Below are positions 3,377 to 61,596 of a DNA stretch of 64,000 bases, piece after piece; the first letter of the stretch is position 1; every line of letters starts with the position of its first letter. This DNA is from Candidatus Brocadiia bacterium (GTDB taxonomy: Bacteria; Planctomycetota; Brocadiia; SM23-32). The notes beneath the pieces were generated by a model, which was given only the letters and a program-made list of their open reading frames with translations, was not told the DNA's origin and did no database searches. The stretch is taken from assembly GCA_046538485.1 (NCBI GenBank), contig JBKHIT010000001.1, positions 32,001 to 96,000 of the forward strand, written 5' to 3'. A program made the position numbers and the translations under genes.

Positions 3377-4141
3377 TCATTCGGTCCCCACAACACCTTC
3401 CTGTCCGATGATTCGGACTCCGGCCTCTAATTCCCGTCCATTGGCAGCTATGCTCACGGTCTGAGTGATTCCGGCTGGGGTCTCGGCATCGCAGGGATAT
3501 CCGGCGATTCCTATCCTGACATCCATACCGGTGATATGGCCGCGTTCGCCCAGTTCGAGTTCAAATTCCTTAATATTCTGGCGCAGAGTCTGCATTTTTT
3601 CCTTCGCATCTCCCAGACTCGTTTCGGGCAACAGCATAGAAAATTCTTGCCCGCCGAGCCGGGCTACAACACCGTCTTCGCCTGCTACATCCTCAATTTC
3701 CTCGGCCATGCCACAAAGCACAATGTCCCCGACAGCATGGCCAAATTCGGCATTAATACGCTCAAGCCCGATAATGCGGAGGTAGGAAAAAGCAGCAGCC
3801 TTCCCCACTTCGAACGCGTGTTCACGTGCTTTTTTCAGGCGTTCTCGCATATATTCTGACGTGAAAACACCCGTTAATGAATCCCGGTCGGTCATATCCT
3901 TTATCGTCTGTGCCTGTTCTTGTGCAAAATCCATTACGGCGCGGAAGGCATATACCGTAACAACAATAGACCACAACAGCATCGGAACAAGAAGAACACT
4001 CACCAACAGGGACAAGTTCCCGAAGAATCCGAGAGCTACCAGGTGCAACACGATGAATGCGCTCAACCCCGCCGACCCGTAGAAAACTTTGCGAAACCTG
4101 CCGATTACCTTCTCGTCCATAACCGTCTGTTTGTCTTCCAT
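3377..4141 (-). CDS. 2-TM GGDEF-domain protein with degenerate active site (GGQEF)
   Basis: DSLTG, INAEFGH.VGD, ARLGGQEF and IGIAGYP motifs; two N-terminal hydrophobic helices; ATG at 4141 after AGAGGAG. Confidence 0.88.
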   Translation of the reverse strand: MEDKQTVMDEKVIGRFRKVFYGSAGLSAFIVLHLVALGFFGNLSLLVSVLLVPMLLWSIVVTVYAFRAVMDFAQEQAQTIKDMTDRDSLTGVFTSEYMRERLKKAREHAFEVGKAAAFSYLRIIGLERINAEFGHAVGDIVLCGMAEEIEDVAGEDGVVARLGGQEFSMLLPETSLGDAKEKMQTLRQNIKEFELELGERGHITGMDVRIGIAGYPCDAETPAGITQTVSIAANGRELEAGVRIIGQEGVVGTE

Positions 4142-4245: not shown

Positions 4246-5349
4246 TCAATCCGTCTTGAGAGCTTCCTGGAAGTCCTGCTTGATCTCTCTTATCTGATCC
4301 AAATTCTCAATAAACAGATCGAATATCTCCGGGTCAAAATGCGCCCCACGACCGCTTTTCATGATTTCCAGCGCTTCCGACTCCGGGAGAGGATCGCGGT
4401 AAGGACGTTTCTCGCTGAGGGCATCATAAACATCAGCGACCGCGCATATCCGGCCAAAAAGCGGAATATCCTCGCCTTCCAGACCTTCGGGATATCCGGA
4501 TCCATCCCATTGTTCATGGTGAGTTCTCGCGATAGTTTCACCCCCCTGGAGGACTTTTGAATCCGAACCTCCTAAAATCCTGGCCCCGATTTCTGTGTGA
4601 GACTTCATGATTCCCCATTCGTCCGAAGAAAGCTTGCCGGGTTTCAGCAAAATTTTGTCGGGTATCCCGATTTTGCCCATATCGTGCATACGGCTGGCAA
4701 AATTAAGCGTTTCGACATCGCCCGGCGGCAGATGGAGCAGTTCTCCGAGAAAAGTACAATACTTTCCGATTCTCTGGACATGCGCCCCGGTCATTTCGTC
4801 GCGGTATTCCGAAGCAATCGCCAAACGTTTCACAGTCTCCTGGTGGGCATAATGTGCTTCCCTTTGCGCCTTCGCGGTCTCGCGAAGTGCACTCCGAAGT
4901 TCCTTCTTGCTCAAATCGTTCCACTGGTCATCCAATCCCGAATATTCTTCGTTTTCCTCGACCCCCTCCTTTACCTGCCCGATATGCGCTTCCAGGACTT
5001 CACCTACTTCATTCCAATCGATCGGTTTTGCGATGAAATCATCCGCCCCGAGACTCTCTGCCCGTTCCCTGTCCGTTGCACTGTCGAGTCCGGTGACCAT
5101 AACGACCGGGATGTCAGAACTATGTTCTCCGTTTCGGATACGGCCCAAAACTTCGTAACCATCCAGCCCCGACATCTTTGCGTCCAGGAATACCAGATCG
5201 AAACCCAATTTCAGTTTCGCGAGGGCTTCATAACCATCGGCGGCGCCTTCGGATTCATAGCCGAGCTGACCCAACCTTTCCGAAAGCAGAATCCGGTTTC
5301 GTTCCTCGTCATCAACCACCAAAATTCGGGACCTTTTGTTCTTTTTCAT
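4246..5349 (-). CDS. REC + HD-GYP c-di-GMP phosphodiesterase (RpfG-like response regulator)
   Basis: N-terminal REC (ILVVDDE, FLDAKM, KP); HDMGKIGIPD, HHEQWDGSGYPEGL, AVADVYDAL and RPYR motifs. Confidence 0.93.
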   Translation of the reverse strand: MKKNKRSRILVVDDEERNRILLSERLGQLGYESEGAADGYEALAKLKLGFDLVFLDAKMSGLDGYEVLGRIRNGEHSSDIPVVMVTGLDSATDRERAESLGADDFIAKPIDWNEVGEVLEAHIGQVKEGVEENEEYSGLDDQWNDLSKKELRSALRETAKAQREAHYAHQETVKRLAIASEYRDEMTGAHVQRIGKYCTFLGELLHLPPGDVETLNFASRMHDMGKIGIPDKILLKPGKLSSDEWGIMKSHTEIGARILGGSDSKVLQGGETIARTHHEQWDGSGYPEGLEGEDIPLFGRICAVADVYDALSEKRPYRDPLPESEALEIMKSGRGAHFDPEIFDLFIENLDQIREIKQDFQEALKTD

Positions 5350-8300
5350 TGGTCTTTCTTCCCTCCCGTAAGAACTTCATTGAGTGCTAATCTCAGATCT
5401 TTCAGAGCGATCGGTTTGGACAAAATTGCATCGACTCCTACCACTGTTTCACCGCGTTCGTGCATAATATCCCCGAACCCCGTCAGCATAATGACGGGTT
5501 TTTCTGGTGCTTTCTTCTTGATCAATTTTGCGAGTTCATCCCCGGCCATTTCTGGCATAGCTCTGTCCACAATCACCAGATCAAACCAATCGGCGTGGAA
5601 TTTCGTCAGTCCCTCGGCGCCATCGGAAGCTGTCTTCACGCTGTGGCCATCGCTCCTGAGGTATTCCGCCACGACTTCTCTGACCCCGTCTTCATCGTCA
5701 ACCACAAGAATATTAACCGGTTGGTCCACACGGACCATTTCCTCGTCCTCGGTTTCGGTTTCTATATTAGAAGCATCTTCACTCATGCGAGGAAAACTCA
5801 ACCGAACACAGGTGCCGATTCCCGGTTCACTTTCAATATCCATATTGCCGCCGTGCCGTTCAACAATCCCATGTAACAAAGAAAGTCCGAGGCCGCTCCC
5901 CGTATCGCCTTTCGTTGAGAAAAAAGGCTCCAAACACCGCCGAAGGGTCTTTTCCTCCATGCCCTCGCCGGTATCCCGCACTTCGAGTTCCACATTCTCC
6001 GCGGTGGATACGGTGTCAAAAGAAATCTTGCCGCCGTCCGACATAGCATCGACACCATTGAATATGAGATTTGCGATCCCCTCACGCAGTTCGGCTTCTT
6101 GTCCGGCAATCTGCGGAAGATTCTGCTCCAGATCCGTCTCAACTTCAATACTGACTCCTTCCGATTCCGCCTGGTCACGCCATCGCGGGGCGGTCAAAGA
6201 TATGCATTCCTCCACAACAGAGTTCAGGTCGACCGCTTCGAATCCTTCCGTCTCATCCCGCTGCCGGTAAAAAGACCGCATCCGCCGGACGGTCTCTCCC
6301 GCATCAGAGGCCGCCTTGCGAATGAGACCGAGGTACCGCTTCGCCTTTTCCCTGTCCTCCAGATTCTGGGGGTTCTCCGTCAGTAACTCGGTAAATCCAA
6401 GAATCTGAGAGAGCGCGTTGTTAAAATCGTGCGCGATACCGCTGGCCATCTCCCCAAGCGCCCGCAGACGTTCCTGCCGGATCACATTCTTTTCGGTCTC
6501 CTGAAGCCGTTCCAACGTCTCAGCAAGTTCTTCATTTGCCTTCTTAAGCTCCCGTTCGGCCTTCTTCTCTTCCGTCACCTCGATCCCAATAGCCACCGAT
6601 CCGATGACATCTCCCGAACCATCTTTCAGGTTGTGCGAATTCCAGCGCATAATGCGCTCTTCGCCCTCTTTGGTCTGGATCGTTGTTTCCAGACCGACTA
6701 CGTCCATTTCGTCCTGGGCCACCTCCTGGGCTCGCTCGACGATTTCGGCCCGGTAGTCGGGATCTGGATAAAGCCATTCCCAAATTTTTCCCTTCCCTTG
6801 CACTTCCTCGCGGGAGTACCCGGTGATATCCTCAGCCGCGTCGTTCCAGAGGATCACGTCGCCGCGCATATCCAGCACTTCGATCCAGACATTCGCGCCG
6901 TTAATGACCGTTTCCTGAAAACTCGCCAGTTCCTGCACCTGTTCCTCGGCTTTCTTGCGTTCCGTCAAATCGAGAAAAACCCCGATCACATACACCGAGT
7001 CCGTATCTTCATCCCGGACAAGAGACATCGATACTTGAACGGGGAACGTGGATCCATCTTTCCGTTCAGCAACGAGTTCCCCCGACCACTCCGCGTTTTG
7101 ACGGGTCTGACGATGGGCCGCGCGAGCGTTCTCGGGATTCTCCCAGAATTCCGACGCCATGTGCCCTATGACCTGGTCACGGTCTTCGTACCCCCACATC
7201 TTCAGCGTGGCGGGATTCGCGAGGATTACTTTCCCCTGAGCATCGATCATCGTGATTCCGTTGATTGATGATTCGATCGCCCGGCTTTGAATCCGCATCT
7301 TATGCTCTGCACGCTTCCGTTCGGTTATATCGTTCTTCGTTGAAATATAGTTGACAATTCTCCCGTCGCTGTCTCTGACAGCGCTGACACTCGCATACGT
7401 GACAATTTCCGTTCCGTCCGGTCGCTCATTCCGGATTTCTCCCTCCCAGGAGCCTTCTTGCCGAACTGTTCCCATTATTTCACTTGTAACACCGTGTGGT
7501 TCTTCACTCACATTGAACTCCGAAACGTGGAGCCCGATCATGTCGTTCCGTTTGTACCCCTGCATCTCGGCCGCCGCCGCATTGGCATATTTTATTCGCC
7601 CTTCGGCATCCGTCATGATCACTGCCTCCTGTGCCATCTCAACCGCCTGAAGGAGTCTTTCCTTTTCCGCAGTGACCTGTTTCCGTTCCGTTATGTCCGT
7701 AATAATACCCTCGAGAAACACCGGTTCTTCCCCGGCCGGACTGACAGCGCAGCCCTGTTCCCACACCCATCTTTCGTTCCCGTCCCGACCAATAATCCGA
7801 TATTCGAGTTCGAACTTTCGATCTTCCTGGACGGCTTCCTGCACACAATTCCAAACCCGCTCACGGTCATCAGGATGTATGAGGTCCCCATAAAGCACCT
7901 CACATCCCAACATCAGTTCCGTGGCCTCGTAACCCGTGATTTCCGCCGCGGCATCGCTGCAAAACTCCATCGACCATCCGGGCTCGTTGTAACATCGGTA
8001 GGCCATCCCCGGTAGACTGTTGACCAGAGCATCCATGCGTCCTTTGCTTTCGCGTAGAGCATCATCCGTGAGGGCTTTGCCCCGAGCGAATCCCAGATCC
8101 TGTGCTATTTCATCCGGTTCGTATCCCGTCATATCCGTCCAGGCTTTGTTAATCGTCACCACTTCCCCGTCTTCCGCGTGAACCATAATCGGGAACGGGG
8201 CTTCTTTGACAGTCCGTTCAAACCGGTCGGGAAGCGCATTATCACCGTGGTCTGTGCCCGCCGATTGCGCCTCACGTTTCACGGCTTCAACCAGGCGTTC

Positions 8301-8639
8301 TGAATCCCCCCGGACAACGACATCGGACACCCCCGCCCGCATCCAGTCCGCCGTCTGTGCTTCACCCACTGGTTTCGTTGCAACAATAAAGGGTAACTTC
8401 CGGTCGGCATTTCGAACCTTTTGGAGCGCCTCCTGCACGTCTAAGCCAGACATCGAAGCATCAAACAAAGCGATATCCCAACCCTTTTCCCGGAGGGCTG
8501 CATCCAGTTTTTCTGGATTCTCCGCACATCCCCCGTCGATCTCACGGTCCGCACCGGCCAATTCGCCCATGATCCGACGCACATCCTCCTCTGAATCCGC
8601 AATAAGCAGAATACTGAGCCGGTTGAGCTGGTTTTTCAT
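5346..8639 (-). CDS. Cytoplasmic hybrid histidine kinase (REC-like, multiple PAS, HisKA, HATPase, REC)
   Basis: Repeated PAS/PAC ends (DITERK, DLTERK), H-box GIAHDFNN, DTGEGM, GSGLGL, C-terminal REC; ATGA overlap with the HD-GYP gene. Confidence 0.93.
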   Translation of the reverse strand: MKNQLNRLSILLIADSEEDVRRIMGELAGADREIDGGCAENPEKLDAALREKGWDIALFDASMSGLDVQEALQKVRNADRKLPFIVATKPVGEAQTADWMRAGVSDVVVRGDSERLVEAVKREAQSAGTDHGDNALPDRFERTVKEAPFPIMVHAEDGEVVTINKAWTDMTGYEPDEIAQDLGFARGKALTDDALRESKGRMDALVNSLPGMAYRCYNEPGWSMEFCSDAAAEITGYEATELMLGCEVLYGDLIHPDDRERVWNCVQEAVQEDRKFELEYRIIGRDGNERWVWEQGCAVSPAGEEPVFLEGIITDITERKQVTAEKERLLQAVEMAQEAVIMTDAEGRIKYANAAAAEMQGYKRNDMIGLHVSEFNVSEEPHGVTSEIMGTVRQEGSWEGEIRNERPDGTEIVTYASVSAVRDSDGRIVNYISTKNDITERKRAEHKMRIQSRAIESSINGITMIDAQGKVILANPATLKMWGYEDRDQVIGHMASEFWENPENARAAHRQTRQNAEWSGELVAERKDGSTFPVQVSMSLVRDEDTDSVYVIGVFLDLTERKKAEEQVQELASFQETVINGANVWIEVLDMRGDVILWNDAAEDITGYSREEVQGKGKIWEWLYPDPDYRAEIVERAQEVAQDEMDVVGLETTIQTKEGEERIMRWNSHNLKDGSGDVIGSVAIGIEVTEEKKAERELKKANEELAETLERLQETEKNVIRQERLRALGEMASGIAHDFNNALSQILGFTELLTENPQNLEDREKAKRYLGLIRKAASDAGETVRRMRSFYRQRDETEGFEAVDLNSVVEECISLTAPRWRDQAESEGVSIEVETDLEQNLPQIAGQEAELREGIANLIFNGVDAMSDGGKISFDTVSTAENVELEVRDTGEGMEEKTLRRCLEPFFSTKGDTGSGLGLSLLHGIVERHGGNMDIESEPGIGTCVRLSFPRMSEDASNIETETEDEEMVRVDQPVNILVVDDEDGVREVVAEYLRSDGHSVKTASDGAEGLTKFHADWFDLVIVDRAMPEMAGDELAKLIKKKAPEKPVIMLTGFGDIMHERGETVVGVDAILSKPIALKDLRLALNEVLTGGKKDQ

Positions 8640-53368: not shown

Positions 53369-54511
53369 ATGCTGATGAAGAAAAACTACATGTTCACGCC
53401 AGGGCCTACAATGGTACCGCACGAAGTTCTGCTGGCGGAAGCCGCACCGATGATCCACCATCGCACTCCCGATTTTTCAAAGATTATGCGGGAAGTCACC
53501 GACGGAATGAAGAAGCTTTTCGGAACCGAGCAGGAAGTGTATTCGATCGCGGGAAGCGGCACCGCCGCCATGGATGCCGCCATCGCCAATACCTGCTCTC
53601 CCGGCGATACAGCAATCTGCGTGCGCGGCGGAAAATTCGGTGCCCGATGGGCCGAAATATGCAAAGCTTACGGATGCGAAGTAATCAATATCGATATCAA
53701 ATGGGGCCAGTCACCTTCCATTGAGCAGATCCGCTCCGCTCTCGGGGAACACCCAGACGCCCGTGTGCTTTGCGTAACACACAGCGAAACCTCCACGGCG
53801 GCTCTCACCGATGTCCAGGCCATCGGAACCATGACCTGCGAACAAAGTACCCTCCTCGTCGTTGATGCCATCACCAGCGTCGGAGTGCATCCAGTGTGCA
53901 TGGACAAATGGGGATTGGACGTGGTGGTCTCTGGTTCCCAAAAAGGTTGTATGATTCCACCGGGCCTCGGTTTCATTGCTGCCAGTCCGGACGCATGGGA
54001 TATCATCGATGATTGCGCCTCTCCCCGCTACTACCTCGACATGAGAGCGATGCGGGATAAGTGGGCAGATTCAACTCAAACCCCGTTCACCGGCACTGTC
54101 TCACTCACCCGCGCCCTCCAGAAAGCGCTCAAAATGATGCGCGAAGAAGGGCTCGAAAACCTCTACGCCCGCCACGCCCGACTCGCCGAAGCAACTCGCA
54201 GCGCGATGATGGCCATCGGACTCGACCTGGTCGCTGACAACCCTGTCAACGGCGTCACCGCCGTCTGGGCGCCCGAGAGTATTGACACCGGCGAAATGAC
54301 AAAACTCATGCGAGATCAGTACGGCGTCACAATCGCCGGTGGGCAAGCTGAGCTCAAAGGCCGCATATTCCGCATCGGTCATATGGGCTACGTCAGCGAA
54401 GACGACCTGCTGATCTGCATCTCCGCCGTCGAACGAGCCCTGAGAGATCTCGGATACCAATTTGACCTCGGAACGGGTGTCTCCACCGCACAGGAAAAGC
54501 TCTTTGGCTGA
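53369..54511 (+). CDS. Class V PLP aminotransferase (serine/alanine-glyoxylate or phosphoserine aminotransferase-like)
   Basis: TPGPT.VP, HHRT..F, GSGT.AM, HSETST, VDAITS, SGSQKG.M.PPGL, TPFT and AGGQ..LKG.IFRIGHMG. Confidence 0.93.
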   Translation: MLMKKNYMFTPGPTMVPHEVLLAEAAPMIHHRTPDFSKIMREVTDGMKKLFGTEQEVYSIAGSGTAAMDAAIANTCSPGDTAICVRGGKFGARWAEICKAYGCEVINIDIKWGQSPSIEQIRSALGEHPDARVLCVTHSETSTAALTDVQAIGTMTCEQSTLLVVDAITSVGVHPVCMDKWGLDVVVSGSQKGCMIPPGLGFIAASPDAWDIIDDCASPRYYLDMRAMRDKWADSTQTPFTGTVSLTRALQKALKMMREEGLENLYARHARLAEATRSAMMAIGLDLVADNPVNGVTAVWAPESIDTGEMTKLMRDQYGVTIAGGQAELKGRIFRIGHMGYVSEDDLLICISAVERALRDLGYQFDLGTGVSTAQEKLFG

Positions 54512-54534
54512 GACTCCATCACTTAAATGCTGCT

Positions 54535-55410
54535 ATGGATTTCCAGACCCACTTCACCTACCGGGATGCTATCCCCCACCAAGAAGGCGTAACACGACGC
54601 GATCCGAGCCCCGTTATTCTTGTTGGTAACACATACCACGTCTGGTACACGCAGGCAACGGTCGATCACTCGGGATACTACGGAAGCATCTATCACGCGA
54701 CATCACCGGACGGTCTGGAGTGGCATGAGCAGAAAGAAGCCGTGCCGAAAGGCGGACCGAACGCCTGGGATGAAAACGGTGTCTTCACACCAACTATTCT
54801 CATTGCCGATAGCCTGTATTTCATTTTTTACACCGCTGTGCCGAAACCGTTCCATCAGGACCCCGTCGACCCGACCCCCACCGCCATCGGAATCGCAATG
54901 GCAGATTCTCCCGGGGGACCCTGGAGTAAATTCGAAGGCAACCCCGTTCTGGAACCGGGACCCGAAGGCACATTCGACTGCTTACGTGTTGACGATAGCT
55001 GCATGATCAAAAGAGACGGTAAATACTGGATGTACTACAAAGGCCGGGGGCGCAAAGACACGCCGATGGGACTGGCCATTGCCGATGACCCAACCGGCCC
55101 GTACTTCAAACACTCATATAGCCCTCTGGTTGAAAGCGGACACGAAGTCTGCGTCTGGCCGCACGGCGACGGGGTAGCGGCATTGGTCGGCCATACCGGT
55201 CCGAATCCACACAACATCCGCTACGCACCCGACGGCCTGCATTTTTCCGTGGAATTCCAGACAAAAGTTCCCGCCGCCCCCGGGCCCTACCGGAAAGATC
55301 ATTTCCGCGACGGGCCGGGACCCGGTATCACCTGGGGACTTTGCATCGGCCGCCACCCGGAGCACCCTTTTCTGCAACGTTTCGACTGCGATTTGAGGGC
55401 CAACCCGTGA
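54535..55410 (+). CDS. Five-bladed beta-propeller glycoside hydrolase, GH117/GH43-like
   Basis: GVTRRDPS.VI, YHVWYT, ATS.DG..W.E, WD..GVFTP.IL, FD..RVDD, YYKG and SGHEVCVWP. Confidence 0.8.
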   Translation: MDFQTHFTYRDAIPHQEGVTRRDPSPVILVGNTYHVWYTQATVDHSGYYGSIYHATSPDGLEWHEQKEAVPKGGPNAWDENGVFTPTILIADSLYFIFYTAVPKPFHQDPVDPTPTAIGIAMADSPGGPWSKFEGNPVLEPGPEGTFDCLRVDDSCMIKRDGKYWMYYKGRGRKDTPMGLAIADDPTGPYFKHSYSPLVESGHEVCVWPHGDGVAALVGHTGPNPHNIRYAPDGLHFSVEFQTKVPAAPGPYRKDHFRDGPGPGITWGLCIGRHPEHPFLQRFDCDLRANP

Positions 55411-55599
55411 ACGGCAACTATCGCGGTATGGCCGTCGTTTGCCGTTTTATGTGGGTCTATCTTCGCCGTTAAATCCATCACCTCTTGAGCTTTCTCGCCA
55501 AGTTCCGGTCGAAAGCTGGGAAGCTGAGACGGGAGGAAGTTTTGTTCTGTTATGAAGAAAGCAATTGGGCATGTAGAGTATTCGCAACATCCAGCCCGG

Positions 55600-55693
55600 G
55601 TCTGGCGACCCGCCGCGCGGAGAGCGGCAATCTCGGTGTTGGGCAAAAAACGACGAGATTGCTTCGCCCATCTTACGATGCACTCGCAATGAC
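55600..55693. repeat. Degenerate palindromic extragenic repeat of the GTCATTGCGAG...GCAATCTC...GAGATTGC...CTCGCAATGAC type
   Basis: Inner IR GCAATCTCG/CGAGATTGC; outer end CTCGCAATGAC faces a degenerate GTCTGGCGA. Confidence 0.6.
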
Positions 55694-55870
55694 CACTGTG
55701 GCTGAGATTTCTGACTAAGCAGGTAGCCGGAGGCTACAGTTCAGAATGCGGACAAGTCCCCCTTCGCCTGCCAATGACGGGCTCAGCTGAACTCGAGTCT
55801 TCCTGGCCGCGAACATAGCTCCCCAATTTCAATACCACGACGCCAGCGGCGACTGCTTCCAATCCCATAC

Positions 55871-59189: not shown

Positions 59190-60299
59190 TCAACCCCAGG
59201 CTTTCGCCTCGAGCATCTCGCACGGCAATGCACTTATTTTAACAAAACCATCTCCCGTGATGACTACCATCTCTTCGATTCGCACCCCCATTTTCCCGGG
59301 AATATAGATTCCGGGCTCGATAGTAAAAACCATGCCCGGTAGCAAAACTGCCTCTTCCCCCGGTGCTACCCGAGGCGCTTCGTGCACCTCGAGGCCCACA
59401 CCGTGACCAATTCCATGGCCAAAAAAACGGCCGTAGCCGGCCCGTACAATTGCAGACCGAGCGGCCCGATCAACATCGGCACAGGTTACGCCAGGTTTTA
59501 GCTTGTCAAATGCGGCTTCTTGTGCCTGTAAAACAACTTCTGACAACTCTCCAATGCCTTCAGGCATTGTACTGCCCGCCACAACTCGTGTCAAGTCTGA
59601 ATTATACCCCCGTACAGTAGCGCCCCAATCCACCAAAAGAGGTTCATCCCGAAGCACCTGTTCTGTCGCCACCGCATGCGGCTGGCTCGCATGCGCACCG
59701 CAAGCGCAAATGGTCTCAAATGCTCGTCCTTCAGCCCCTCGAACGCGCATCTCCCACTCAAGGCGTGCGGCCAGCCAATTCTCTGATTTCCCGGGGCAAA
59801 TTTCCCCGGAAAAAACTCGAAATGCCTCCTCCGCAAAGCGCAATGCCTCACCAACTGCCGCTAATTCATTCTTATCTTTACGAACCCGCAGATCTTCTAC
59901 CCACCCGCTTTCACAGGGGACAAAATCGCGTAAGCTTAGTTCAGATCTTAACCTACGGTAGTCCGCATACGATACATTCCGCGAAGAAAACGCTATTTTA
60001 CCACAATCGAGTTTACGACAAAGAACCGCCACTTCCCGTGCCATACGGCTCCGTCTCACCAGGATATCATCGACCTGAGCTTCCGTTTCGGCCTGCTCAC
60101 TGTAACGAGAATCTGTGACGAGCACTGCCCGCTTTGCACCGATTAGCAGCGTGCTGTCATTACCTGTAAAACCAGACAAGTAGCGCACATTGGGGGTTGC
60201 CACCGCCCAGTAAGCATCGACCTGCTCGCGCACCATCCGTCGGCGAAGCTGCTCGATACGTTCCGCGCAGGTGCGCCGCGGAAATTCCTCAAATCCCAT
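59190..60299 (-). CDS. Xaa-Pro aminopeptidase (M24B)
   Basis: NVRYLSGFTG, TDSRY..QA, LR..KD..E, PHA, D.GA...GY.SD.TR, HGIGHGVGLEVHE.P, TIEPGIY and GVRIE; ATG at 60299 after GGAGGA. Confidence 0.93.
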   Translation of the reverse strand: MGFEEFPRRTCAERIEQLRRRMVREQVDAYWAVATPNVRYLSGFTGNDSTLLIGAKRAVLVTDSRYSEQAETEAQVDDILVRRSRMAREVAVLCRKLDCGKIAFSSRNVSYADYRRLRSELSLRDFVPCESGWVEDLRVRKDKNELAAVGEALRFAEEAFRVFSGEICPGKSENWLAARLEWEMRVRGAEGRAFETICACGAHASQPHAVATEQVLRDEPLLVDWGATVRGYNSDLTRVVAGSTMPEGIGELSEVVLQAQEAAFDKLKPGVTCADVDRAARSAIVRAGYGRFFGHGIGHGVGLEVHEAPRVAPGEEAVLLPGMVFTIEPGIYIPGKMGVRIEEMVVITGDGFVKISALPCEMLEAKAWG

Positions 60300-60624
60300 G
60301 CTCTCCTCCACAATACTTCCATCCTGTTGTCCTGTCCGGATATTATCACACCGGTCCCAGATGTCAAAGTCACCGAACACAACAGATAAACCCATTGCCA
60401 TCGGGACCACAAAACGCGTTTTCCACCGAAAAACCGGCGACACAGGCTTTTGCAGCCAACGAAACAAGTTGTTGAACCTGTAATATAATGTTTTTAGTCG
60501 CAAGTTGCCTTGTCCCGAAACACCAGAAACGGTAAAGTATTTGGGACAAACAATTCCGGTTCGTAAGGGGGGACTCTGGAAGCCGCAGCTTTCCTGAGAT
60601 ACAAAATCCGGTGGAGCAGGCGAG

Positions 60625-61596
60625 ATGTCTTCAAACAGCATTCCCACAGAATTAAGCGACCCATCTTTGAAAAGGCTAAAGAGGATTTTTGTCGGCGGTG
60701 TTCTCCTCTGCGCAGTGATTGTGCTGCACCTTCTTTTTATCAGCAAAACCATATCCAGTCTCTACGCCCGCGCGACCCTGTTACCGATGCTGTTGTGGGC
60801 TTTGGTTGTCACAACATATGCTTTCCATGCCGAGCGAGAACGGTCCCGCCTCGCCCAGGAGCTCCAAATTGCGGCGGATATCCAACTGGGGCTTCTCCCC
60901 GAAAAAGCCCTGGAAACGCAGATGTTTGAGGTCGGCGGGATGTGTCACCCGGCCGAGCGGGTTGGCGGAGATTTCTTCGATTACTGGTTACATAACAGCC
61001 GTGTCTGTATGGTTGTGGCTGACGTCACAGGCCACGATCTGGCATCGGCCCTGCTGGCTGCTTCTTTCCGAAGTGTTGTACGGGCGGAATCAGCGCATCG
61101 CACATCGGTTTCCGAGATCGCCGAAGGTATCAATCGTGTGATGTACGATGATCTCGTTAAATCTGACCTGCAGATAACATTTTGCTTCGGCCAGCTGGAT
61201 CCCGATGAAAAAACGTTCACATACTGTTCCTGCGGCCACCCTTACCCGATAAAAGTTGGTGAAGACCAGGTTTCGTGGCTTAAAACCGGTGGGTTACTGC
61301 TGGGCGTGCAACGCGAGGCAAAATATCCCGAAGAAACGGTAGAGCTTATGCCCGGCGATAAAGTGCTGATGTACACCGATGGTGTCATTGAAGCAACGAA
61401 CAGGGACGAAACAGCATTCGGAGCCGAGGGACTGAGATCCGCAGTCCGGTCGGCCGCTTCTCATTCTGCGCCCGAATTATCCCAGGAAATTGTAAGAGAG
61501 GTACGCGAATACTCTCAGCGCTCGAAACTTCGGGACGACGTGACGGTCCTCGCGGCACAAATTAAGCCTTCTGACCTTTCGCGGCAGGCAATTTAA
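60625..61596 (+). CDS. 2-TM PP2C/SpoIIE-family (RsbU-like) Ser/Thr phosphatase
   Basis: EL..AA.IQ..LLP, VGGDFFD, VADVTGH, CGHP.P, YTDGV.EA and DDVT; two N-terminal TM helices. Confidence 0.93.
   Translation: MSSNSIPTELSDPSLKRLKRIFVGGVLLCAVIVLHLLFISKTISSLYARATLLPMLLWALVVTTYAFHAERERSRLAQELQIAADIQLGLLPEKALETQMFEVGGMCHPAERVGGDFFDYWLHNSRVCMVVADVTGHDLASALLAASFRSVVRAESAHRTSVSEIAEGINRVMYDDLVKSDLQITFCFGQLDPDEKTFTYCSCGHPYPIKVGEDQVSWLKTGGLLLGVQREAKYPEETVELMPGDKVLMYTDGVIEATNRDETAFGAEGLRSAVRSAASHSAPELSQEIVREVREYSQRSKLRDDVTVLAAQIKPSDLSRQAI

Follow-up and report, generated by a model that had tools for sequence, protein, structure and literature searches.

Sensors of PPM phosphatases and GGDEF cyclases have been proposed to be interchangeable through dimeric helical linkers, and in the systems studied both kinds of output are dimers controlled via paired helical linkers (PMC12143880, sections consulted). 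Here we analyse a stretch of 64,000 nucleotides from a Candidatus Brocadiia bacterium (contig JBKHIT010000001.1 of assembly GCA_046538485.1, positions 32,001 to 96,000), called the window throughout, which encodes a degenerate GGDEF protein and, 57 kb away, a PP2C (SpoIIE-type) phosphatase. Both proteins begin with the same two-helix membrane hairpin, and in the phosphatase this hairpin stands in place of a long N-terminal region and GAF domain. As in the proposal, one N-terminal module is common to a PP2C/PPM and a GGDEF protein, the junction lies at the start of a helical linker, and the GAF domain of the orthologous phosphatases is one of the sensor domains listed (PMC12143880). The sensors named in the main text of that work, in which the word ‘transmembrane’ does not appear, are soluble (RsbU N-domain, PAS, REC, GAF, HAMP), whereas that of the window is a membrane hairpin (PMC12143880). 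The swap is the type of event that the linker proposal predicts, and it extends the proposal to a membrane module.

The hairpin also invites comparison with the intramembrane-sensing kinases. SaeS, as portrayed in the part of PMC4388633 used here, has two N-terminal transmembrane helices (TM1 and TM2) joined by a nine-residue extracytoplasmic linker, and no external sensor domain. Likewise, the hairpin has two helices and a connection too short for a sensor (four residues in the GGDEF protein, five in the PP2C protein), and the control of a dimeric cytoplasmic output via the helix leaving the membrane, described for SaeS-type kinases, may be likened to the role that we propose for the module (PMC4388633). 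The element tuned in SaeS is the external linker peptide, whereas the conserved part of the module is the cytoplasmic half of TM2 (PMC4388633). We found no sequence relation between the two in Pfam/NCBIfam scans, and the output of SaeS-type proteins is a kinase core, whereas the module carries GGDEF, HD-GYP, PAS and PP2C outputs.

MASE domains have more transmembrane helices and a broad taxonomic range, whereas the module has two helices and occurs in one family of one phylum. They resemble it in being membrane-embedded N-terminal domains that serve several signalling outputs and for which the account in PMC8846402, in the part consulted, gives no known ligand. The 2TM domain (PF13239) is, like the module, a two-helix hairpin at a protein terminus, but its scores of 14.9-17.2 bits stay below the cut-off of 24.8, and only 2/27 modules match it at E<=1. 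In NCBIfam, the two catalytic domains come closest to SiaA and SiaD (NF038263, NF038266), with scores far below the equivalog cut-offs (59.6 against 700, 81.3 against 290). SiaABCD of Pseudomonas is a partner-switching system with a PP2C phosphatase and a diguanylate cyclase in one pathway; in the window, however, siaB/siaC-like neighbours are absent, the GGDEF protein is of a degenerate type and 57 kb separate its gene from that of the phosphatase.

A hairpin common to two signalling proteins and confined to one family

When the whole GGDEF and PP2C proteins are compared by BLASTP, only their N-termini align, with 26/63 identities, 38/63 positives and one gap (50.4 bits, composition-adjusted E 9e-12). 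The preliminary description of this DNA, made from the letters alone, had reported such a common segment, and its coordinates are off by a few bases at most (YAFRA reaches to 3938; the segment of the phosphatase lies at about 60661-60831). The strings IVLHL, PMLLW and VVTxYAF that it singled out are all present in both window copies, and the near-absence of an extracytoplasmic loop agrees with AlphaFold2 (AF2) models, in which the external turn has 4-6 residues. The features of the two genes are as follows, with GGDEF residues counted from the ATG at 4141 and model confidence given as pLDDT (predicted local distance difference test).

3377..4141, minus strand: gene of the degenerate GGDEF protein, ATG at 4141 as likely start, 254 residues
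3377..4171, minus strand: longest GGDEF open reading frame, TTG start
3938..4105, minus strand: shared module, GGDEF protein residues 13-68; RFRKVF lead-in, TM1, turn, TM2 ending YAFR (BLASTP and alignments)
4022..4087, minus strand: TM1, V19-F40, with His33, a variable polar position, at 4043-4045 (AF2 helix 2-40)
4010..4021, minus strand: external turn of four residues, G41-S44 (AF2 non-helical 41-44)
3944..4009, minus strand: TM2, L45-F66, core LLWSIVVTVYAF, with Trp57 at 3971-3973 (AF2 helix 45-85)
3887..3943, minus strand: linker helix R67-D85, unbroken with TM2 and running into the GGDEF domain (AF2 block pLDDT 82-94)
3455..3889, minus strand: degenerate GGDEF domain (PF00990, 87.8 bits against a cut-off of 23.8; AF2 pLDDT 94-98), GGQEF at 3641-3655, RII for DLD, without RxxD
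60625..61596, plus strand: gene of the membrane-anchored PP2C (SpoIIE-type) phosphatase, 323 residues
60661..60828, plus strand: shared module, PP2C residues 13-68, ending YAFH (BLASTP, alignments, AF2); TM1 ~I21-I39 with His35, turn S40-S45, TM2 ~L46-F67 with Trp58
60829..60894, plus strand: PP2C linker helix A69-~90 (AERERSRLAQELQIAADIQ...), from the junction alignment; AF2 helix continuous across the junction
60997..61563, plus strand: SpoIIE/PP2C catalytic domain, residues 125-313 (PF07228, 161.5 bits against a cut-off of 25, E 3e-47)

The ATG at 4141 is the likely true start of the GGDEF gene, because it is preceded by GAGGAGAG and its Met is also the first residue of P0001, a protein 97% identical.

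A profile built from the two segments and run on the 5.19-Mb genome assembly retrieved a third copy (E 2.7e-12), at the head of another GGDEF protein (259 residues, motif GGVEF; contig C43 of the window genome, G000, locus L003, 1465..2244). The next matches, at E 0.24 and 0.43, were unrelated polytopic membrane proteins, that is, noise; as the assembly is 88.3% complete, further copies may exist. The third copy reads LIGLYLL where the window copies have IVLHL, and TVLLW where they have PMLLW, with Tyr and Thr-Val at the His and Pro-Met sites. Thus His, Pro and Met are not kept even within one genome, while LLW..VVT.YAF is.

We then have to ask how widely the hairpin occurs. Among 1,835,955,588 representative proteins, a three-row profile matched 48 at E<=1e-3, of which 20 also pass E<=1e-10. 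Pfam recognises GGDEF on 30 of the 48, SpoIIE on one, which is the window protein, HD_5 (HD-GYP type) on one, and PAS only on two; the latter, of 614 and 336 residues, both terminate with a PAS domain and are perhaps truncated. Eleven have no Pfam family, ten of them being 95-143 residues long and the eleventh being P0034 (293 residues). The remainder comprises an 88-residue protein with sub-threshold matches only and two repetitive proteins. P0023, P0034 and P0045 were dropped as repetitive false matches, with 19, 3 and 5 matched stretches. No HisKA or HATPase match was seen with Pfam on any of the 48. The loci of relatives add two HD-GYP fusions (L040, L056) and several stand-alone forms of ~110-140 residues. 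Neither they nor the 48 representatives include another PP2C fusion, which is seen in this lineage only. The module has, as had been supposed, been shuffled among signalling outputs: GGDEF, HD-GYP, PAS, PP2C and a stand-alone form.

At the genome level, the three-row profile (A2) was positive in 17/24 family genomes among the nearest relatives. A lone match among 16 genomes from outside the family was discounted (E 0.0035, four internal stop codons), and a locus of Aurantimonas from the A2 contig search was treated as spurious (24 residues, 54% identity, E 5e-4 against candidates only). A 27-row profile (A3) found the module in 21/30 other family genomes, with 1-5 matches each, and in 15/20 genera, the genus of G000 included; it found none in 400 other genomes spread evenly over the phylum, of which 243 are high-quality ones. 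The lineage specificity anticipated in the preliminary description is borne out by these counts. In protein searches limited by a word index, GGDEF residues 14-85 returned their own cluster only (1/173 candidates), and the 27-row profile, at longer lengths, returned 18 proteins, all GGDEF, with no new architecture.

With these data, the shared hairpin is confirmed at the sequence level as a match beyond chance, and composition alone would not give the profile result. That two hydrophobic N-termini are alike by chance, or that the PP2C fusion arose as an assembly chimera, is scarcely conceivable. Transmembrane segments are indeed biased in composition, and the fusion is seen in one lineage only, but the E-value of the pairwise match allows for composition, the profile matches are family-specific and come with a signalling output domain on 34/48 proteins (30 GGDEF, 1 SpoIIE, 1 HD_5, 2 PAS), and all 400 genomes beyond the family are negative. 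Moreover, the fusion reading frame is intact, joined in frame at a helix boundary, and recurs on a different contig of a second assembly.

The preliminary description did not recognise a named MASE-type domain in the segment, and comparison with the domain databases agrees. Scanned as whole proteins at E<=1, neither N-terminus matched a Pfam/NCBIfam model at cut-off; the sub-cut-off matches there were 2TM (14.9 bits) and TspO_MBR (11.3 bits, cut-off 24). Likewise, 27 isolated modules gave no Pfam match at cut-off at E<=1 among the best 25 of 36 families, where the commonest was DUF2157 (4/27, best E 3.9e-5). No MASE model appeared at E<=1 for the two proteins, nor for the 27 modules among the same best 25 of 36 families. 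We found no published description of the hairpin in the literature, judged mostly by titles and abstract openings. The module is real, unnamed and confined to one planctomycete family. It adds an undescribed, very narrowly distributed membrane domain to the N-terminal modules that are moved between signalling outputs.

Exchange of the sensor region in the PP2C phosphatase

For the catalytic part of the window phosphatase (residues 75-323), 22 family genomes each contain one relative that clearly stands out, at 39-49% identity, with the next-best at <=35%; some PP2C catalytic match at E<=1e-20 is present in 28/30 other family genomes. We extracted 11 of the orthologue genes, ten of which are open reading frames of 527-547 residues, while the eleventh holds a masked stretch. 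Two of them, scanned with Pfam, have a GAF domain (~127-270) followed by SpoIIE (~333-521). The window protein lacks the long N-terminal region and GAF domain and has, in 323 residues, the two-helix module instead. In 3/11 orthologue loci, as in the window, a convergent smc gene follows downstream; the remaining flanks, covered over ~1.5 kb each, showed none. Because there is one best relative per genome and smc is convergent downstream, the window phosphatase is, by sequence and position, the positional orthologue of a soluble GAF-PP2C protein. The acidic motifs ADVTGHD, YTDGV and DDVT of the window protein have aligned counterparts in 10 orthologues; such motifs have a role in metal binding.

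The junction can be placed between H68 and A69 (nucleotides 60828|60829), where the window protein reads ...VVTTYAFH|AERERSRLAQELQIAADIQLGLLPE and the orthologues ...NCRLIN|AERERQRLEHELELAARIQLSLLPE: homology to the orthologues begins at the first residue of the linker helix. About 280 residues (N-terminal region and GAF) have been replaced by 68. The fusion recurs, identical at 321/323 residues, on a different contig, of 13 kb, in another assembly, and is therefore not an assembly accident. It represents a clean natural exchange of a sensor module, which the positional orthologues allow to be dated to one lineage, and the GAF and two-helix versions of one phosphatase could be compared directly at the bench.

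The origin of the incoming module was examined with a maximum-likelihood tree of 92 modules, which has few columns and many unresolved forks. The PP2C module falls in a clade of 11 rows (support 96/85) together with the paralogue on C43 of G000, other degenerate GGDEF proteins, two PAS forms and one HD-GYP form; the window GGDEF module lies outside. By identity, the module nearest to that of the phosphatase is P0005 (31/53), against 24/53 for the window GGDEF protein. Given the tree clade and these identities, the donor was a member of the degenerate-GGDEF group and not the gene 57 kb away. A recent copying from the latter was considered and rejected, as the two modules stand in different clades.

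On the other side of the phosphatase gene, the longest open reading frame of an M24 Xaa-Pro-type peptidase (window 59190-60752, minus strand) overlaps the PP2C start. The Pfam domains of this peptidase begin only past an internal Met near 60296, and for this reason the peptidase and PP2C genes probably diverge from a spacer of ~330 bp.

How the hairpin may act

The module has a common plan: a basic lead-in R-x-R-x-[IV]-F, TM1, a short and variable turn, and TM2 with LLWSLVVTxYAF. Conservation was counted over 96 modules, 94 of them distinct, drawn from 45 kept representatives, the open reading frames of relatives and the three G000 copies. In GGDEF numbering, Trp57 is present in 93/94, Tyr64 in 89/94, Phe66 in 84/94, Phe20 in 81/91 and Arg17 in 76/91, and Leu55, Leu56, Ser58, Val61, Thr62 and Ala65 of TM2, with Gly22, Ser23 and Leu26 of TM1, each occur in >=60% of the sequences. 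The conserved residues of each helix lie in its cytoplasmic half, and others in the basic lead-in, while the external turn, of 4-12 residues across the family, and the outer helix halves vary in sequence and length. Each helix has basic residues next to its cytoplasmic end, and the output domains are cytoplasmic, which fits a hairpin with both termini inside.

For the GGDEF protein (35-row alignment; mean pLDDT 90.9, predicted template modelling score 0.78), AF2 gives a helix at 2-40, a turn at 41-44 and a single unbroken helix from 45 to 85 into the GGDEF domain. The PP2C model (mean pLDDT 88.3), whose input was a 32-row patchwork of module rows and orthologue catalytic rows, has a helix at 13-40, a turn at 41-45 and an unbroken helix at 46-90.

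The hairpin is, in our judgement and with little to spare, probably a portable input module that anchors its carrier in the membrane and transmits through dimers. Two such hairpins would pack in the membrane, and their TM2 helices would extend as a paired linker whose relative position could set the activity of the dimeric outputs (GGDEF, HD-GYP, PP2C). As an external domain is absent and the external half is not conserved, the signal would be intrinsic to the membrane or come from a membrane partner protein. In this lineage the module has replaced the N-terminal region and GAF domain of a conserved PP2C protein at the first linker-helix residue, and the swap has turned a soluble phosphatase of ligand type into a membrane-tethered one. 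Such a mechanism would resemble that of the two-helix input domains of intramembrane-sensing kinases, SaeS being an example (PMC4388633, in the part consulted).

Several points weigh against a transmitting role. Dimerisation and sensing are inferred, and each AF2 model is that of a monomer, with a shallow alignment as input (35 and 32 rows). The good conservation of TM2 could reflect only hairpin packing and insertion. No plausible cyclase occurs among the three module proteins of the genome, and both GGDEF copies are degenerate, so that control of output by the geometry of a GGDEF dimer cannot be their point. Finally, the PP2C fusion is known from two near-identical assemblies only, which leaves its selective value unproven.

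The main rival of an input module is a passive tether that would localise the outputs to the cytoplasmic membrane and carry no signal, which we regard as unlikely though serious. The short two-helix anchor of ArcB has reportedly been argued to be such a mere localising tether. A tether would account for the absence of an external domain, for the variable turn of 4-12 residues and for the lack of any conserved ligand-type residue (His in 27/92 modules). In the ESM Atlas, the second feature match of residues 1-80 is a cluster in which 27% of the members are labelled HKR_ArcB_TM (PF18415), likewise a terminal two-helix hairpin. However, its score of 0.78 is at chance level, as is the best feature score of 0.79, the structural neighbours are generic helical hairpins, and PF18415 is not among the hmmscan matches. 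Against a mere tether, 12 consecutive residues of TM2 are conserved across genera whichever face of the helix they lie on, together with R-x-R-x-[IV]-F, which implies more constraint than anchoring needs. In addition, five or more types of output and a stand-alone clade (support 100/100) retain the module, and the fusion junction respects the register of the linker helix.

It had also been suggested that the His, Met and Trp residues could bind heme, a metal or a quinone. Such an intramembrane cofactor sensor, or an ion sensor based on titration of the polar residue of TM1 by pH or membrane potential, is very unlikely. The TM1 position is polar (H/N/Y/E/D/Q/T) in 64/92 modules, which is unusual in mid-membrane; by spacing it lies on the conserved TM1 face (F20, S23, L26, I30, H33), and both window copies have this His as well as Met beside Pro in TM2. 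However, the column is His in only 27/92, Asn in 14 and Tyr in 10; E, D or Q stands there in 12, T and G in 1 each, and a plain hydrophobic residue (L, V, M, I, A, F) in 27. At positions 53 and 54, Pro is kept in 39/94 and Met in 15/94, and the third paralogue of the genome has Tyr for the His and Thr-Val for Pro-Met. No heme-, quinone- or metal-binding family was matched in Pfam by the two proteins, nor by the 27 modules among the best 25 of 36 families. The proposed ligands are therefore not features of the family, Trp (93/94) being the only essentially invariant one of them. The module points neither to a new cofactor nor to a new mechanism.

Paralogues, the degenerate GGDEF protein and gene neighbourhoods

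The stand-alone proteins of ~110-140 residues form a single clade in the module tree (100/100), which on this phylogenetic evidence is an old paralogue line and not a set of gene fragments. Those at L058 (660-983), L057 (311-655), L029, L031, L033 and L020, and P0039, P0040, P0044, P0046 and P0047, carry a basic helical tail of the ADRARA...IKARL type. One stand-alone copy of 110 residues (L010, 1146-1478, plus strand; contig G022:C43) lies directly upstream of a same-strand gene for a canonical module-bearing diguanylate cyclase with a likely start at ~1441. The same type of pairing, on one strand, is seen at G004:C7 (13668-14187) and G437:C330 (14-474). Such a pair, found in one genus, is a candidate for a small membrane regulator with its enzyme.

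These observations bring up another role for the hairpin, along the lines inferred in the preliminary description, that of a hetero-oligomerisation hub in which paralogous modules co-assemble, stand-alone or inactive GGDEF copies regulate enzymes, and cyclic di-GMP (c-di-GMP) signalling is coupled to partner switching. We consider it distinctly unlikely. It agrees with the 1-5 copies in matching genomes, with the age and support of the stand-alone clade and its adjacency to cyclase genes, and with the partner-switching parts present elsewhere in the window genome (4 SpoIIE, 4 STAS and several RsbW-like kinase-domain matches). However, there is no direct evidence for contact between modules; a complex prediction for two isolated modules, run without controls, scored 0.02 against a mark of 0.32 and speaks neither for nor against a homo- or heterodimer. 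Moreover, the window GGDEF and PP2C genes, 57 kb apart, have no common neighbours, their modules fall in different tree clades, the phosphatase gene has no adjoining STAS or anti-sigma kinase gene, and the three copies of the genome include neither a stand-alone form nor an active module-bearing cyclase.

A bolder form of this idea, a long shot in our view, is that the hairpin is a family-specific membrane assembly code through which all carriers co-assemble via TM2 into one signalling complex. If this were true, dead GGDEF and stand-alone copies would tune cyclases and HD-GYP phosphodiesterases, and a single domain swap would have wired a phosphatase of the general-stress partner-switching type into a c-di-GMP node.

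On contig C127 of G000 (~54376-55847, minus strand), SpoIIE, an RsbW-like HATPase_c_2 and STAS follow in a row, the first two in one frame of 471 residues. This is the one compact partner-switching cluster of the genome and is unrelated to the window phosphatase.

The module family also contains a conserved clade of membrane-anchored GGDEF proteins that appear to be catalytically dead. In GGDEF domains, the GG[D/E]EF motif is catalytic and an upstream acidic DxD forms the metal site. The window protein was described as degenerate from the start, and rightly so: its motif is GGQEF, the YLDLDGF of canonical relatives has become YLRIIG, and there is no RxxD five residues before the motif. No member of its clade has an acidic residue in third place of the motif (GGQEF, GGVEF, GGLEF, GGMEF, AGQEF and others), and the DLD of canonical relatives is replaced by R/K/Q followed by two hydrophobic residues. 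Other module-bearing clades are canonical, with RSCD, five residues and GGDEF. Members of the inactive type are found at window 3455-3889 (minus strand), L003 1465-2244, L006 605-1366 and in P0004-P0022. By these comparisons the degeneracy is an old, conserved state and, because this state is conserved across many sequences, it suggests a receptor or scaffold role for the clade.

Two further signalling genes lie directly upstream of the window GGDEF gene.

4246..5349, minus strand: response regulator with REC and HD-GYP (HD_5) domains, directly upstream of the GGDEF gene (Response_reg 82 bits, HD_5 123.6 bits)
5346..8639, minus strand: hybrid histidine kinase, 1097 residues (REC, three or four PAS, HisKA, HATPase_c, REC; open reading frame and Pfam)

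The end of the kinase gene overlaps the start of the REC-HD-GYP gene by 4 nucleotides, and the GGDEF gene follows 104 nucleotides downstream of the latter, so that the three look like a compact c-di-GMP turnover unit. In Xanthomonas, RpfG, a REC-HD-GYP protein, interacts with GGDEF proteins independently of cyclase activity, and this contact needs the DxD of the GGDEF domain (PMC3749722, in the part consulted). The window is reminiscent of this system in that a REC-HD-GYP gene adjoins a GGDEF gene and follows a hybrid sensor kinase gene. We read the DLD of canonical relatives as the DxD needed for the RpfG contact; the window protein, with RII in its place, appears to lack it, in which it differs from the partners of RpfG (PMC3749722). 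No conserved synteny was found for the window GGDEF gene, the paralogue on C43 of G000 having other neighbours.

Among 27 relatives' loci that were clustered by neighbourhood, synteny is clade-specific only and no common membrane partner emerged, in a clustering cluttered by spurious open reading frames of high GC content. A group of divergent module-GGDEF proteins (L044 778-2025, minus strand; L043 253-1569; L045 411-1646; L041 1-966) has an additional conserved C-terminal region of ~180 residues that ends in ...VVAWAAY and, in the one protein scanned (L044), has no Pfam match. The canonical cyclase clade adjoins a signal-peptidase-like gene in 9 loci. A clade of module-GGDEF proteins of ~245 residues (GRVGGDEF) adjoins one recurrent gene in 6 loci (L012, L013, L018, L022, L030, L034), which, by its motifs, we take to be GTP-cyclohydrolase-II-like.

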